Source: an uncultured Gemmatimonadales bacterium (GTDB taxonomy: Bacteria; Gemmatimonadota; Gemmatimonadetes; Gemmatimonadales; GWC2-71-9). Taken from it: DNA of 64,000 nt. The translations under genes were made by a program, and so were the position numbers. The notes beneath the pieces are model-generated. The model was not told the DNA's origin. It did not search any database and saw only the letters and a program-made list of their open reading frames with translations. The DNA is taken from assembly GCA_963771275.1 (NCBI GenBank), contig CAVYSW010000003.1:576001-640000 (forward strand), read 5' to 3'. Of this stretch, positions 35,623 through 61,675 are shown piece by piece; the stretch's first letter is position 1, and each line of letters opens with the position of its first letter.

Positions 35623-37150
35623 CGTCTGTGTGCGCTCAAGCCGTCCACGAACCCAGCCCCGCCCCCATTCCGTAGCCTGACGATCGCGCTGCGGCTCGTG
35701 GGCGCCCTCACGACCGTCACGGCCATGTCGCTCTCCGCCCAAGAGCGGGCGGCAACAGTCGAGGGACGCGTCACGGAGGCCGAGAGCGCGCGCCCGCTGC
35801 CCGGTGCCGTGGTCACGAGTAGTTCGCCCTGCGCTCCGTCCCGACCGGTGCCCTCGCGTCGCTGACGACCGGCGGCCCCACGGCAGGCGACCTGGCGTCG
35901 CTCGGCACCCTGATCATCCTCGACGGCGTGCCGCTCTCGAACAACGCGAACCGGCAGACCTCCGGCCCATCGGCTCGTGTTCGGCGGCAGCACGCCCGAC
36001 GAGCCGGGCACGGTCGTGCTCGACTCCCGCATCGACGCCTTCGCTCTGAACCAGAACAGTCCGGAGCGCCCCGACCTGTTCCCGGGACAGACGGACCGGA
36101 ACCATGACAAGGGGCTGCGCCTGGCGGAGCGGCTGCGGGCCCGTCTCGGACCAGCGGCTACCTCCGCGTCATCGCGTCACTCGACTATCAGCGCCAGCGC
36201 TCCGTTTGCCCAGGCGCCCCGGATTCGCGGGGCCACCCCGTTCACCGATCGCCTGACGGAAGGGACCCAGGAGGGTCACTTCGTGCTCGGTCAGTACCTC
36301 TCCGCGATCCAGCTCGACGGGGATGTGTGAAACGGGTTCGCGCAGATCGAGTACGGCACTTCCACCAGCCTCCTGGGGGGCCATCACCAGCTGCTCGGAG
36401 GTGCGGAGCTGCGCCGCGAATGGAACGCCGGCGCCGGATACATCTTCGACATCGAGTTCCCCCCCCAAGTAACGTTCAACGGTGTCCAGGGACGACCGGC
36501 CGCGGCGGTTCGACTCCATCCCGCCCGCTGCGACGACCGCGCTCTACCTGGACGACCGCCTGTCGAGTCTGCTGGGGTTCGCCCCCTTGAGCCTCCAGGC
36601 CGGGGTCCGGCTGGACCTCCTGCACCGCGGATCCACGTGGTTTTCGGCCGTGCGGGATGCGGTCCTCCAGCCGCGGCTGAACTTGGAGCTGGCCCCACGC
36701 TCGTGGCTCAGGCTCCGGGGCGGGATCGGGCGCACGGCCAAGTCGCCCACGCTGGGCCAACTCTACCCGGCGCCGCAGTACTTCGACGTCGTGAACCTCA
36801 ACTGGTTCCCGCCGAATCCCGCAGAGCAACTCGCGATCCTCACGACCTTCATCCGCGACCCCACGAACCCCGACCTGGGGTTCGCGCGGGCGTGGAAGCG
36901 GGAGGCGGGGTTCGAGCTGGGCGGCGCACGGGGCGGGCCGGCCGTGGGCGTCGTGTACTTCGATGACCGGATCAGCGGAGGCATCGGGTTCCGGCCCGAT
37001 CCCGGGTTCCTAGTGCGCGACCTGTACGATTTGGCTGATTCCACGACCGGCACGGGCGCGAAGCCACCGGTGATCACGCCGCCCACCCGGGCCGACACCG
37101 TGCCGATTTTGCTGGACGTCCCCGCCAACATCCTCACGCTCGACAACCGT
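35623..37150 (+). pseudogene. Degraded TonB-dependent receptor
   Basis: Fragments in different frames: VEGRVTEAESARPLPGAVV, plug-like GTLIILDGVPLSNNAN, and barrel-like LQAGVRLD, QPRLN, KSPTLGQLYP and NPDL. In-frame TGA at 36328, frameshift near 36490, C-terminus missing. Confidence 0.8.
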
Positions 37151-55564: not shown

Positions 55565-55948
55565 ATGGCGTCCAGAGCGGGGTACGCGATCCTGATGGCC
55601 GCCCTCGTCGCCGGTGCGTGCGGTGAGGTCACCATCGGTCCGGTGGGGGTTCGTCTCGATCTCCGGGGCAAGGTGCGCGCGGCCGCGACCGGGCTCACGA
55701 TCGGCGGCGCGCGGGTGACCCTCTACGCGCCGTCGGACACGGCGGCCGGCATCGACAGCACCGCCGTCATCGCCGACGGGTCCGGCAACTACCGCGTCGT
55801 GCACCGGCTCGCCGACAAGGCCGACTGCGCCTTCATGCTGCTGCAGGCGAGCGCGGCGGGATACGCCCCCACCACGGTTCCGAACGACTCGATTCACTGC
55901 ATGGACGCGGCCCAGATCGTCAACATCGAGCTGGACGCGCTCCGCTGA
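55565..55948 (+). CDS. Lipoprotein with carboxypeptidase-regulatory-like beta domain
   Basis: VAGAC lipobox; G.V.......I.GARV.L, AD.SG.Y and A.A.GY patterns. Confidence 0.7.
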   Translation: MASRAGYAILMAALVAGACGEVTIGPVGVRLDLRGKVRAAATGLTIGGARVTLYAPSDTAAGIDSTAVIADGSGNYRVVHRLADKADCAFMLLQASAAGYAPTTVPNDSIHCMDAAQIVNIELDALR

Positions 55949-56005
55949 CTCGCTTCCGCGCCCGGCCGGGTGTATTATCGGGAGTCACTTCATCGGGGAT
56001 CTCCC

Positions 56006-56578
56006 GTGCATCGCCTCTTCGCCACGCTTGCGCTCGCGCCGCTGGTCGCGGTTCCCGCGATCGCGCAGCAGCCCCCGCCCCCGGTGGCACCGCCGCTCGC
56101 GATCGGCGCCGCGGCCCCGGACTTCGCCCTGCCCGGTGCCACCCGGTACGGCGTGCTCAAGGACCCGGTCGGACTGTCGGACTTCAAGGGCAAGACCGTC
56201 GTGCTCGCGTTCTTCTTCCATGCGAGGACCCCTGGCTGAACGATCCAAATGCATGCGTACCGTGATCAGTACGCACAGCTGTTCAGGGATGGCCAGGACG
56301 TCGTGCTGCTCGCGATCAGCGCCGACCCGGTCGAGTCGCTTGCGTCCTGGGCCAGGGACGATCAGTTCCAGTTCGTGATGCTGAGCGACACCGCCACGGC
56401 CGTCGGCAAGCTGTACGGCGCGCTCGCCAGCCGCGCGGGGGTCACCAATCGCAACCTGTTCGTGGTCGGACCGGACGGGAAGATCGCCTACCGCGCGCTC
56501 CCGTTCCGGGAGGTGGACCCGACGTCCTACACCGCACTCGGCGAGGCGATCGGGAAACTGGCAGGGGAGAAACAGTAG
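56006..56578 (+). CDS. Exported peroxiredoxin (BCP/AhpC-TSA fold), predicted selenoprotein with UGA at 56237-56239
   Basis: Signal peptide, G..APDF.L, LSDFKGK.VVL.FF...RTPG-UGA-T, then in frame AIS.D and R..FVVG.DGKI.Y. SECIS-like hairpin follows the UGA. Confidence 0.85.
56254..56275 (+). promoter_or_regulatory. Putative bacterial SECIS element
   Basis: TGCGTAC-cgtgatca-GTACGCA, a perfect 7-bp stem starting 14 nt after the UGA, with G at loop position 2. Confidence 0.7.
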
Positions 56579-56629
56579 GCGGGTCGGGGGTAGGGAGGTA
56601 GCGGTTAGCGGTTTCAGGGAATGCCGCGC

Positions 56630-56658
56630 AGGGTGGTCGGGCGTTGCCCGGCCACCCT
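56630..56658 (+). terminator. GC-rich stem-loop, possible terminator
   Basis: agggtggtcgggc-gtt-gcccggccaccct downstream of the peroxiredoxin; weak U-tract. Confidence 0.45.
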
Positions 56659-56797
56659 CGCTGTTCGCCGACAGGACGGGGCGCGCCAGCGACGCCCTTC
56701 CACCGCACACTTGCAGGTACCGCGCTCGGCCGGTTCACGCGTTTCGGTCTCGCCAGCCGGAGCGCACGGGCGCACGTCATCGTGACGCCGAGGATCC

Positions 56798-57697
56798 ATG
56801 TTTCTCCTCGCTTTGTTGCTTGCCGCCATCGGCCCGACGGTCCGGTCGATCGTCGTGGCGCCGGCGGAGTCCATCGCCGTCACCGTCGTCGGTCACGGTG
56901 AGCCGGTCGTGCTCATTCCGGGGCTGATGGGGTCCGCGTTCACCTTCCGCAGGGTCGCCCCGCAGTTGGTCGACGCCGGCTTCGCGGTGGTGATCGTCGA
57001 GCCGCTGGGCATCGGCGGGTCCGCCCGCCCGCGCGCGGCAGACTATTCGCTCACGGCGCAGGCGGGGCGCGTCGCGGCGGCACTCGACACGCTGGGACTG
57101 CATGACGCCGTGATCGTCGCGCACTCGATCGGCGGCTCGATCGCGTTCCGGCTCGCGTTCCACCGTCCGGATCTCGTCGCGGGCATCGTGTCCGTCGAAG
57201 GGGGGCCCGCCGCGGAGGCCACGACGTCCGGCTTCCGGTTCGCCATGCGGTTCGCCAAGCTGCTGCGCTTCGGCGGGTCGCGGCTGCTGCGCCATACGGT
57301 CGATCACGAAATGAAGGCGGCGTCGGGCGACTCGACCTGGGTAACCGACGCGGTCGTGACCGGCTATACGGCGGGGGCGGCGCGGGACTTCACCGCGACG
57401 TTGATTGCGTTCCAGGGGATGGCGGCATCCCACGAGCCTCCGGAGGCGCTGTCCGCCGAGCTCAGCCGCGTGCGGTGCCCGGTGGTCCTGCTCGTGGGCC
57501 TCGCGCCGCACTCGAGCGGGGTACCGCCCACCGAGATCGCTTTGCTGCGGGACTCGCTGCCCGCGTTCACGGTCGATTCCATCCCGGGCGTCGGGCACTT
57601 CATTTTCGAAGAAAACCTCGCGACCGTCGTGGACGCGGTGACGCGGCTCCGACGGTCCGTGCCGACCGTCGCGCAGGGGGGTGCCGTGCAGCGGTGA
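56798..57697 (+). CDS. Alpha/beta hydrolase, probably exported
   Basis: AHSIGG nucleophile elbow, GVGHF, hydrophobic N-terminus. Confidence 0.85.
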   Translation: MFLLALLLAAIGPTVRSIVVAPAESIAVTVVGHGEPVVLIPGLMGSAFTFRRVAPQLVDAGFAVVIVEPLGIGGSARPRAADYSLTAQAGRVAAALDTLGLHDAVIVAHSIGGSIAFRLAFHRPDLVAGIVSVEGGPAAEATTSGFRFAMRFAKLLRFGGSRLLRHTVDHEMKAASGDSTWVTDAVVTGYTAGAARDFTATLIAFQGMAASHEPPEALSAELSRVRCPVVLLVGLAPHSSGVPPTEIALLRDSLPAFTVDSIPGVGHFIFEENLATVVDAVTRLRRSVPTVAQGGAVQR

Positions 57698-57730: not shown

Positions 57731-58735
57731 TCAGCTCCTCACGGCCGGCTTCCCCACCTCGACCCGTACGACCCCGCCTTCGGCACGCCGCCGGTTCTCC
57801 TCGTCCACTTTCGCGACCTTGGCCCGGTACATCTGCCGCGCCGTCTCGTTCGCGAGCACGTTATCCGGCAGCGGCCGACCGGGCCGCGCCTCCCAGAATC
57901 CCGCGATGCCGGCCGCGCCGAACAGCCCGGTGATCAGCACGCGCGGTGCGGCGGCATCGGTAAACACCGGCGTCACGAAGTAGGCGGTCGTCGCGAGGGC
58001 GGCGCCGAGCCCCAGGCGGACGAATGCGGGACCGGCGGGCTGCCTTACGGGCAGCATGGCGGGCCGCTCGGGCATGGGGAGCGGGTTTTCGGGGAACCGG
58101 GTAACCTGCACGGGCAGCTCGACGCGCCGGCTCACCCGGCCGCGCTGATCCAGCGAGCTGATGCCCAGGATCAGGCCGCCGGCTGGCGCGCGCTGCGCGC
58201 TCCACCGGATCGTCGCCGTGTCGGCGACTTTGGCGCGCGCGATCGTGTCGAGCACCTCCCCGCGCACCGCTTCCGCCGTGACCACGACGACGTGCGGCGT
58301 GTTCGCTGCGAGGCGGATCGGGAGCCCCGGGTCGCGTGGCGCGATCGTGGCCGAGTGGGCCTCGACCGCCACGATCGGCGTCCGCCGCCGGGCCACCTCG
58401 AAGACGCTCTGCACTTCCGGGGTGAACAGCAGGCGATCGAGCCGGTAGCCCGGCTCCAGCCGGATGAGCTGCGCGAACGCCGAGACGGCCGAATCCCGGC
58501 GGTCCCGGTACAGTTCGGCCGCCCCGAGGTAGCAGAGCCCGGTCTTGCGATCCGCCTCGCTCAGGCTGTTGCTCTGCAGCGCACGCCGCAGCAGCCAGCC
58601 CGCCGATTCCATCTCCAGGTCCCGGTAGGCCTGGATGCCCTGCTGCAGCGAGGCTTCGGGAGACTGGGCGCGGGCGGCCGGGGCAGCGGCCATCGCCAGA
58701 ACCAGCGGGACCAGGGTGACCTTACAGCACGTCAT
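57731..58735 (-). CDS. Exported TPR-like hypothetical protein
   Basis: Signal peptide ending ARA|Q, TPR-like YLGAA...A..AF...IRL.P segment, hydrophobic hairpin near the C-terminus. Confidence 0.65.
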   Translation of the reverse strand: MTCCKVTLVPLVLAMAAAPAARAQSPEASLQQGIQAYRDLEMESAGWLLRRALQSNSLSEADRKTGLCYLGAAELYRDRRDSAVSAFAQLIRLEPGYRLDRLLFTPEVQSVFEVARRRTPIVAVEAHSATIAPRDPGLPIRLAANTPHVVVVTAEAVRGEVLDTIARAKVADTATIRWSAQRAPAGGLILGISSLDQRGRVSRRVELPVQVTRFPENPLPMPERPAMLPVRQPAGPAFVRLGLGAALATTAYFVTPVFTDAAAPRVLITGLFGAAGIAGFWEARPGRPLPDNVLANETARQMYRAKVAKVDEENRRRAEGGVVRVEVGKPAVRS

Positions 58736-60108: not shown

Positions 60109-60314
60109 CGGCCTCGACGGTGGAATCCGGACCTAGCAGGGGCACGATCCATACCGCCATGAGACAGACTGTCGCGAGCGGCGCCAACCGCCTGTGAGGG
60201 CGGGAGTTGCGGAAGGGGCGGCGCACAGCGTGTGAGCCGAGACGAGGGCAGCCGGTCTGGCGTCCTGCAAGGCGGTCCCGCGCCGGCGCTCGACGTTGTG
60301 CGGTGGATCACAGG

Positions 60315-60389
60315 AATGATCAATGCTCAATGATCAATGCTCAACGTCCAAGTACTTGAACATTGAACATTGAACATTGATCATTGAGC
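60315..60389. repeat. AT-rich imperfect palindrome built from heptamers (AATGNTC / GANCATT)
   Basis: Five AATGNTC-like units, a CAAGTACTTG centre, then four to five inverted units; overlaps the TlpA stop codon. Confidence 0.85.
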
Positions 60390-60886
60390 CTTCCGCAGCG
60401 CCTTCGCCACCGCGGCCGCGATGTCCTGATCGGCGCCGTAGCCGGTGTACACCACCCGGCCGGCCCGATCGAGCGCCACGACGTACGAGGTGCCGGGCGT
60501 GTCGAACGCGCGAACCGCCTTGCCCTCGCCGTCCCACAGCACGCGTCCCGGCATCTTCTCGTCGGCGAGGTGCCGCTGGATCGAGCGCGGCGTCTGTCCG
60601 ACCCCGACGGCCACGATCAGGAACGCGACGCTCGTGTCGGCCTGCGCGTGCGCCGCCGCGAGACGCGGCAGCAGCTTGCGGCACAGCGGGCACCATGTGG
60701 CCCAGAATTCCACGAGCACCGGTTTCTTCCCGATGTACGGGCCAGATCCACTGGATTGCCGTCGAGGTCCGCCAGCGTCACGGCGGGCGGGGTCGCGCCG
60801 ACGGCGATGCCGATCTGCTCCTGGGCGGCCGCGGGCGCGGAAAAGGCGACGCCGCACACCAAGGCTCCACAGCCGCGGCGGCCCAT
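60381..60886 (-). pseudogene. TlpA-like thiol:disulfide oxidoreductase with a 1-nt frameshift (pseudogene or sequencing error)
   Basis: Signal peptide and L.DLDG.PVDL in one frame; PYIGKKPVLVEFWATWCPLC in another. The shift lies in a C-run near 60740. Confidence 0.75.
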
Positions 60887-60938
60887 CGGCTCATCGGCAG
60901 TCGGCCATCGGCCATCGGCCCATCGGCAATCGGCTCAT
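60883..60938. repeat. Tandem heptamer array (CATCGGC)n
   Basis: About seven degenerate CATCGGC units between the ccdA-like stop and the tlpA-like start. Confidence 0.75.
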
Positions 60939-60943
60939 TCGTC

Positions 60944-61675
60944 TCACCATACCATGCCCGCCTGTACGAAGTAGTACTCCGCCATGGCGAGGATGATCAC
61001 GCCACCCAGCCGCTTCATCCACACCATCCAGCGCCCCGACCGCGGCAGGGCCGCCAGGGTGCCGGAGAACAACCCGACGACGACCAGCAGGGCCGTCATG
61101 CCGAGCGAGAACGCGAACAGATAGAGGAACCCGAGCAGCGCGCTGCGGGTTCCGGCCACCCAGGTGAGCACGGCGGCGAAGGCCGGTGCGCCGCACGGTG
61201 CCGCGACGAGGCCCGACGTCGCGCCGAGCAGGAACACCGCCGGCACCGATCCGCCGCGCAGGCCGCCGGCCCAGCGCAGCCATCGCTGGGGCGTGCTCAC
61301 CGGAATGACGTCGAGCATCGCGAGGGCGAAGAGCAGCAGGAGGTTGCCGACCGCGAGCCGGGCCCACGGACTCGCCCCCACCGTGCCGAACAGCGAGCCG
61401 GAGAGCCCCGCGACGAGGCCGAGGGTGGCGTACAGCAGCGCGAGTCCCAGGACGTAGGCGACCGTGAGGACCGCGGTGCGGGCGCGGCTCCTGCCCTGCT
61501 GCGCCGTGCCACCCATCACCCCGACGGTGATCGGAATCATCGGGTAGATGCAGGGCGTGAGGCTGGTCAGCACGCCGGCGCCGAACAGCAGCCCGATGGC
61601 GACGGGCGGGCTGTGCGCGAGCGCGCCGGTGAGGCCGAGGGCGGCGAGGAACGGGTACGCGGGGACAGCGGGCAC
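60944..61675 (-). CDS. CcdA/DsbD transmembrane domain protein
   Basis: LTSLTPCIYPMIPI, APC..P, F.FSLG and LPRSG.WM motifs; GTG start 6 nt after TATGAT. Confidence 0.9.
   Translation of the reverse strand: MPAVPAYPFLAALGLTGALAHSPPVAIGLLFGAGVLTSLTPCIYPMIPITVGVMGGTAQQGRSRARTAVLTVAYVLGLALLYATLGLVAGLSGSLFGTVGASPWARLAVGNLLLLFALAMLDVIPVSTPQRWLRWAGGLRGGSVPAVFLLGATSGLVAAPCGAPAFAAVLTWVAGTRSALLGFLYLFAFSLGMTALLVVVGLFSGTLAALPRSGRWMVWMKRLGGVIILAMAEYYFVQAGMVW

Follow-up and report, generated by a model that had tools for sequence, protein, structure and literature searches.

PrxU of Eubacterium acidaminophilum is a peroxiredoxin that contains selenocysteine (Sec). Sec-containing peroxiredoxins (Sec-Prx; PF00578, with a TxxU motif) form an experimentally verified selenoprotein family (PMC13188914, Table 1), and a 2016 count placed 91 of them in 78 organisms, the sole Gemmatimonas genome in its supplement being without the Sec trait (PMC5029168). 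Among 12 Sec-Prx, five Cys-to-Sec and no Sec-to-Cys events were reported (PMC1794560). Peroxiredoxins as a whole are defined by a catalytic Cys with an ‘absolutely conserved Pro and Arg’, in the motif Pxxx(T/S)xxC (PMC4749874), the Pro of which ‘serves as a barrier to solvent’ (PMC3337327), and a 2026 review gives the Sec forms a ‘highly conserved PxxxTxxU’ (PMC13188914). In Caulobacter crescentus, electrons pass from ScsB to TlpA and on to the periplasmic peroxiredoxin PprX, a BCP/PrxQ-like enzyme with a signal sequence (PMC3322552). The best fold matches to the protein described below are AhpE, a 1-Cys enzyme of Mycobacterium tuberculosis (PDB 1xvw, 4x0x), and Bcp4 of Sulfolobus (3hjp).

The locus that we compare with these systems lies in a 64,000-nucleotide stretch of DNA from an uncultured Gemmatimonadales bacterium, hereafter the window. 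The initial annotation had joined two open reading frames, 55970–56239 and 56249–56578, into a single selenoprotein gene. The two do share one frame, with the TGA at 56237–56239 as the sole stop between them (FFFHARTPG-TGA-TIQ). The whole gene occupies 56006–56578 of the plus strand, from a GTG start to a TAG stop, and is preceded, 6 nt before the GTG, by a Shine-Dalgarno-like GGGGA (55995–55999) whose role is suggested by its sequence. When the TGA is read as Sec (U), the predicted product is an exported protein of 190 residues with no Cys, in which Sec78 falls in the column of the peroxidatic cysteine, as judged from alignments and from the codons of homologues. Standard annotation misses the gene, as had been anticipated: its halves (77 and 109 residues) are filed as separate NCBI/ENA entries, and since databases hold it as fragments, both the use of selenium and a peroxide defence in the envelope are easily overlooked.

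The protein resembles Sec-Prx and PrxU in its PF00578 domain, in a TxxU motif with Sec at the peroxidatic position and in a bacterial SECIS element (bSECIS) just after the UGA, but it differs from them in having FxxxTxxU instead of PxxxTxxU, a predicted signal peptide and no resolving Cys. The PrxU model (NCBIfam NF040737, ‘peroxi_PrxU’) gives it 58.9 bits against a cut-off of 270. With PprX it has in common the signal sequence (predicted here), the BCP/PrxQ-like character and, judging from gene order, a probable reductant made up of a TlpA-like thioredoxin and a DsbD-family transporter; PprX, however, combines two cysteines with a complete PXXXTXXC motif whereas here there is one Sec, no Cys and no Pro, and the transporter here is a CcdA-type membrane domain. 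A single catalytic residue is found both here and in AhpE, but AhpE and Bcp4 use Cys and retain the Pro, and no signal peptide is visible where they are aligned. Our overall reading, to which we give a probability of roughly 0.85, is that of an exported single-Sec peroxidase with a peroxiredoxin fold, closest to BCP/PrxQ and AhpE.

That the apparently broken gene is one intact exported selenocysteine enzyme is almost certain. In a contig from an independent run of another study (X3), which spans 56188–56609, not one letter differs, so that the TGA is not an assembly error. The differences listed for a further run (X2), at 56003, 56085, 56164 and 56171, include none in the TGA or in the hairpin that follows it. 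A scan of 55800–56850 found no promoter or terminator. The immediate neighbours of the gene (TetR, TolC-like, DUF2007, carboxypeptidase-like and alpha/beta hydrolase genes, and the gene at 57731) stand beside none of 78 relatives, a neighbouring kinase gene having one weak match among them.

Of the 301 genomes sampled from the phylum, which is abundant in soil and sediment, 263 contain at least one match to the family. There are 351 matches in total; among the 150 listed, 139 have a TGA inside and 11 are free of stops. We examined 167 loci with at least 44% identity, namely the 57 closest relatives, the 30 best matches in the phylum and 80 of the other 120 listed, these 80 being picked by hand so as to include all 11 stop-free matches and to spread the rest over families. 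Once duplicates were removed, 159 distinct genes remained, in which the catalytic column is TGA (142 genes) or TGC (17 genes) and nothing else. The pairing of Cys with UGA that had been proposed as a check is therefore found, the 142 distinct genes that have TGA at exactly the catalytic column being spread over six families. Among homologous database proteins, 110 of 120 have Cys at this column. The presence of selA follows the same division: it was found in 134 of the 136 genomes for which a TGA match is listed, versus 1 of the 10 whose listed match is stop-free. This count excludes one genome (G156), any genome may contain matches beyond those listed, and kin are not independent. The two TGA genomes in which selA was not found are fragmented assemblies.

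Several observations were made alongside. A high share of the sampled phylum genomes (241/301) have selA; in one genus (g11), by contrast, it could be found in only 1 of 11 genomes, and the members examined have the Cys form. One genome, G048, holds both a Cys/Pro copy and a Sec/Tyr copy, while G164 has two Sec copies 4 kb apart, one match carrying an extra TAG. Five database proteins (P0003, P0004, P0028, P0132 and P0143) combine Leu or Trp in the catalytic column with Phe or Tyr in the Pro column, and are likely to stem from Sec genes with read errors or a wrongly called code.

The machinery for Sec is present in the host genome (96.7% complete), with selA, selB and selD above curated cut-offs and a tRNA-Sec(UCA). 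Its selD gene has an in-frame TGA of its own (GAG-U-ACK; G000 C3:916686) with a strong hairpin after it. At the peroxiredoxin locus, the perfect 7-bp hairpin described earlier is present at 56254–56275 (plus strand), 21 nt after the UGA, with an 8-nt loop, a G at loop position 2 and a predicted energy of −8.6 kcal/mol. These values satisfy every constraint of the bSECIS model (loop of 3–9 nt, stem of 4–16 bp, G at loop position 1–2, 16–37 nt from the UGA, MFE ≤ −7.5 kcal/mol; PMC13188914, Fig. 2 legend). Folding of the 64 nt after the TGA gave no better energy than did shuffled versions of them (z −0.66), and a comparable stem follows 1335 of 78247 genomic TGA triplets (1.7%). By itself the hairpin is weak evidence, and its conservation is what counts. 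Relatives keep both the UGA and the hairpin: the inner 6 bp are intact in 142/142 TGA genes versus 2/17 TGC genes, and the outer pair of the stem covaries in TGA genes, being C-G (50), T-A (49), G-C (25) or unpaired (16). Synonymous sites of the stem are frozen in TGA genes (GCG in 142/142, and TAC in 142/142, twice), whereas they are free in TGC genes. On this comparative evidence there is very little doubt that SelB with Sec-tRNA would bind the hairpin 21 nt 3’ of the UGA, leading to Sec at position 78, which would be the first step of the mechanism that we propose.

The conserved Pro of PxxxTxxC had been said to be replaced by Phe, and this holds well beyond the present gene. The position is Phe71 here (56216–56218, plus strand) and non-Pro in all 142 Sec genes (Phe in 91, Tyr in 48, Ile in 2, Val in 1), while Pro stands in 17/17 TGC genes and in 109 of the 110 Cys proteins (126 of 127 Cys forms). 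The pattern in the exported family is thus Pro with Cys and non-Pro with Sec. Exceptions were found in 151 further rows: Tyr with Cys in the P0020 cluster, Ser with Cys in P0163 and Phe with Cys in P0184, which is a short divergent fragment. A Pro-bearing exception, P0274, is one of five N-terminal fragments that end at the catalytic codon, the stop codon itself lying outside the fragment data.

We then followed the two traits on trees (a quick tree was used) in which the Pro and catalytic columns were masked and, in some, also 13 residues coded by the SECIS; the latter trees leave out three rows whose catalytic residue is Leu or Trp. On the best trees the Sec/Cys state needs 14–17 changes and the Pro state 14–16, of which well-supported branches force only 4, so that the traits switch together at least 4 times. 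There are 3–4 independent contrasts, none of them discordant, and the sign test on them is underpowered and not significant (p 0.125–0.25). A single clade of Cys forms is rejected by the AU test (26 vs 40 rows, p 5e-78), the rows having been chosen after the first tree. Taking these comparisons together, we lean towards selection as what probably lies behind the pattern. The change would be one from a Pro that walls off the catalytic sulfur to a bulky residue with selenium, and to Pro again in the Cys forms (the fifth step of our mechanism). As to the chemical reason, our guess, drawn from general selenol chemistry, is that loss of the Pro might give room for the larger Se, provide a hydrophobic lid or free a backbone NH that could trap the selenenic acid. 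The coupling of residues 71 and 78 bears on the long-standing question of which active-site changes are needed for selenium over sulfur.

The alternative that survives best, though we consider it unlikely, is that Pro/Cys and Phe/Sec alternate through linkage, a Cys/Pro paralogue having donated a short stretch by recombination or gene conversion. The two codons are only 21 nt apart, so a short recombination would shift both together. Both forms do occur in some genomes (as in G048), and the Cys forms lie away from the ccdA-tlpA locus described below and so may be paralogues or transferred copies; the small number of well-supported independent contrasts (3–4) also leaves room for such a process. 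Yet five variable residues near the tract resemble those of the nearest Sec relative (0.61 over 127 Cys rows) more than those of Cys forms (0.47) or Sec forms (0.43) that are distant, and a gene with both Sec and Pro was seen in 0 of 142 cases although the position varies between Phe, Tyr, Ile and Val. This likeness of residues weighs against a single donor tract, but not against very short tracts.

The fold of the protein is that of a peroxiredoxin. PF00578 (AhpC-TSA) matches residues 33–162, across the TGA, with 101 bits against a cut-off of 26, and none of the NCBIfam peroxiredoxin models reaches its cut-off. An AlphaFold model computed with 68 aligned rows has a mean pLDDT of 90.4, and its best matches, Bcp4 and AhpE, have TM scores of 0.70–0.72 by query length and 0.84–0.88 by target length at 27–31% identity. 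The model shows a helix at 76–87, which puts the U78 column in the peroxidatic position at the start of helix 2. In an alignment with BCP/PrxQ and AhpE structures, F71 falls in the Pro column, T75 in the Thr column, U78 in the Cys column and R149 in the Arg column. Thr75 (56228–56230, plus strand) is Thr in 135, Ser in 6 and Gly in 1 of the 142 Sec genes. Arg149 (56450–56452, plus strand), Arg in 119 of 120 homologous proteins, supplies the conserved catalytic Arg that the initial annotation had expected downstream. The claim that there is no resolving Cys extends to the family, 140 of 142 Sec forms having no Cys either after U or in the 55 residues before it.

By analogy with peroxiredoxin chemistry, peroxidase activity is likely: in the third step, a selenolate placed by Thr75 and Arg149 would attack the hydroperoxide and be turned into a selenenic acid. 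Such activity cannot simply be assumed, since loss of the Pro breaks a defining feature of peroxiredoxins. Because the Sec form lacks this Pro, which the Cys forms of the family have, we class it as a variant that probably acts as a peroxiredoxin does, and not as a canonical member. It is improbable, by comparison, that the protein is a real exported selenoprotein which is not mainly a peroxidase, the loss of the Pro marking a shift to another redox job such as thiol/disulfide or sulfenic-acid reduction, redox sensing or metal binding through the selenol. A Pro termed absolutely conserved and essential (PMC4749874) is, after all, absent from 142/142 Sec genes, and PrxL, a periplasmic peroxiredoxin-like protein that lacks conserved residues, has undetectable peroxidase activity (PMC3322552). 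Against such a shift, however, Thr/Ser and Arg are retained, Cys forms with the full PxxxTxxC are interleaved with the Sec forms at 57–79% identity over the rest of the protein, and selA is absent from 9 of 10 listed Cys-only genomes; the last two observations fit one function carried out with two chemistries.

Export is predicted from the N-terminus. A Sec-pathway signal peptide is called heuristically at residues 1–20 (56006–56065, plus strand), with a basic start, a hydrophobic stretch and a cut after A20 (A-x-A|Q), and leads into a Pro-rich linker; among the 68 aligned rows, conservation of A20 and of Q21 is 90% or more. The same heuristic finds the N-terminal hydrophobic stretch in 138/140 Sec and 17/17 Cys genes scored. 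The peptide would most probably send the protein to the periplasm, as the second step of the mechanism.

With no resolving Cys, the enzyme must be recycled by an outside thiol, and this would be the fourth step. The best candidate is a TlpA-like exported thioredoxin with a WCxxC motif (60381–60886, minus strand), which would be fed by a CcdA-type membrane electron transporter as candidate upstream electron source (60944–61600, minus strand; DsbD_TM match at 60974–61600, start provisional). Two single-base indels shift the frame of the tlpA-like gene in this assembly: run X2 carries an extra base behind 60737, and both X1 and X2 carry one behind 60866. These breaks of frame are probably assembly errors, and they keep ORF callers from detecting the signal peptide. 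On either side of the gene are short tandem repeats with a unit of about 7 bases (60314–60390 and 60880–60935), whose copy number differs in X2. In the window, the ccdA-tlpA pair lies 3.8 kb downstream of the peroxiredoxin gene on the opposite strand; in relatives it usually faces that gene directly. A tlpA-like gene adjoins 64/72 TGA loci versus 0/6 TGC loci (flanks of 1.5–2.5 kb), and ccdA is present at 58 of those 78 loci. In a wider set of 40 stretches, partly from the same genomes, the pair is found at 16/31 Sec versus 0/9 Cys loci, each of the six sampled families providing examples, and is absent from 15/31 Sec loci. Since the pair is convergent and on the opposite strand, it is not co-transcribed with the peroxiredoxin gene. 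The genome also encodes further redoxins and contains two additional DsbD_TM matches. A search of it gave no ResB, and its two cytochrome-c assembly matches are far from ccdA-tlpA; the adjacency may be no more than inherited order, or the pair may serve cytochrome c maturation. Judging from gene order and from the likeness to ScsB-TlpA-PprX, we hold the chances that CcdA-TlpA is the electron donor of the Sec-peroxiredoxin to be close to even, if a little below. The conserved neighbours do offer a testable answer to how a peroxiredoxin free of resolving residues is recycled outside the cytoplasm.

A more far-reaching reading, which we put forward tentatively and which may well be wrong as a whole, brings these elements together: a rebuilt (F/Y)xxxTxxU periplasmic selenium peroxidase, in which Pro and Sec are near-exclusive and have been repeatedly swapped under selection, in which the lone Sec cycles by way of the non-Pro residue, and which is served by a dedicated CcdA-TlpA relay. 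The non-Pro residue, as a lid or through its backbone amide, would allow the lone Sec to cycle in the oxidising periplasm although no resolving residue is present. If true, the rebuilt active site would be a natural repeated experiment on the second-site change that accompanies conversion between Cys and Sec enzymes.

Other readings of the TGA itself fare much worse. That an altered code or a special tRNA leads to UGA being translated as Trp, Cys or some other residue is very improbable: the column does show Trp in one cluster of database proteins and Leu in two or three proteins (protein records only), but the conserved Trp115 is TGG in 157/157 genes in which it could be located, 46/159 genes end in TGA, and the sole UCA tRNA among 63 tRNA lines is tRNA-Sec. 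The first two of these counts rule out a changed genetic code. That the TGA is a true stop, in a pseudogene, through a sequencing error or between two small genes of which the second restarts at ATG 56249, is scarcely credible, since, although gene callers give two products and an in-frame Met lies 4 codons past the TGA in 140/142 genes, the TGA stands at the same column in 142 distinct genes of six families and gives way only to TGC, both the hairpin and selA go with it, a contig from an independent run bears it out, and either fragment would be without the active site.

The assignment of Sec is therefore solid and, Sec-peroxiredoxins being already known, unsurprising. What goes further is the near-exclusive pairing of Pro with Cys and of non-Pro with Sec, together with the candidate envelope relay. 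In the mainly open-access literature searched, we found no publication on the exported Sec family. The text of the 2026 review makes no mention of Gemmatimonadota, a signal peptide or the periplasm (PMC13188914), and a term search of the main texts on BSepDB and deep-Sep gave neither Gemmatimonadota nor peroxiredoxin. The BSepDB input table includes Gemmatimonadota genomes, so members of the family may well be catalogued there as Prx.

The same genome encodes a second Sec-peroxiredoxin family (G000 C6:86589–87038, minus strand), which is BCP-like, has PGNNTPG-U and likewise matches PF00578 with TGA at the peroxidatic column, but has about 30% identity to the exported protein, keeps the Pro and has no signal peptide by inspection. 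Across 121 genomes the TGA is at this column in 33 of 37 matches, mostly with no other Cys, and, in the 30 matches examined of the 37, Pro is retained in 29/29 TGA genes. The codons after the UGA are strongly conserved, and the predicted hairpin is weak and variable. As this second family keeps its Pro, loss of the Pro is a feature of the exported family rather than a general companion of Sec.

When the whole genome was scanned for coding-like read-through of TGA, 268 candidates emerged, those listed being mostly adjacent genes. Ten were followed and five given a Pfam search, in which a domain spanning the TGA was found only in the second peroxiredoxin. An exported DUF411-type protein (G000 C3:303597, minus strand) has a TGA in TPT-U-GCC with a 7-bp hairpin at 21 nt and a Pfam match only after the TGA, and is a candidate for a further selenoprotein. 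In the window, an in-frame TGA at 36328 (plus strand) lies between coding-like stretches (DGDV-TGA-NGFAQ), with no Pfam match and no clear hairpin; this gene may be broken or mis-assembled. Finally, a loose end at 56210 in run X1 led to another organism’s contig, in which a peroxiredoxin reads FPKAFTGG and then TGA, probably a further type of Sec-Prx that keeps the Pro.
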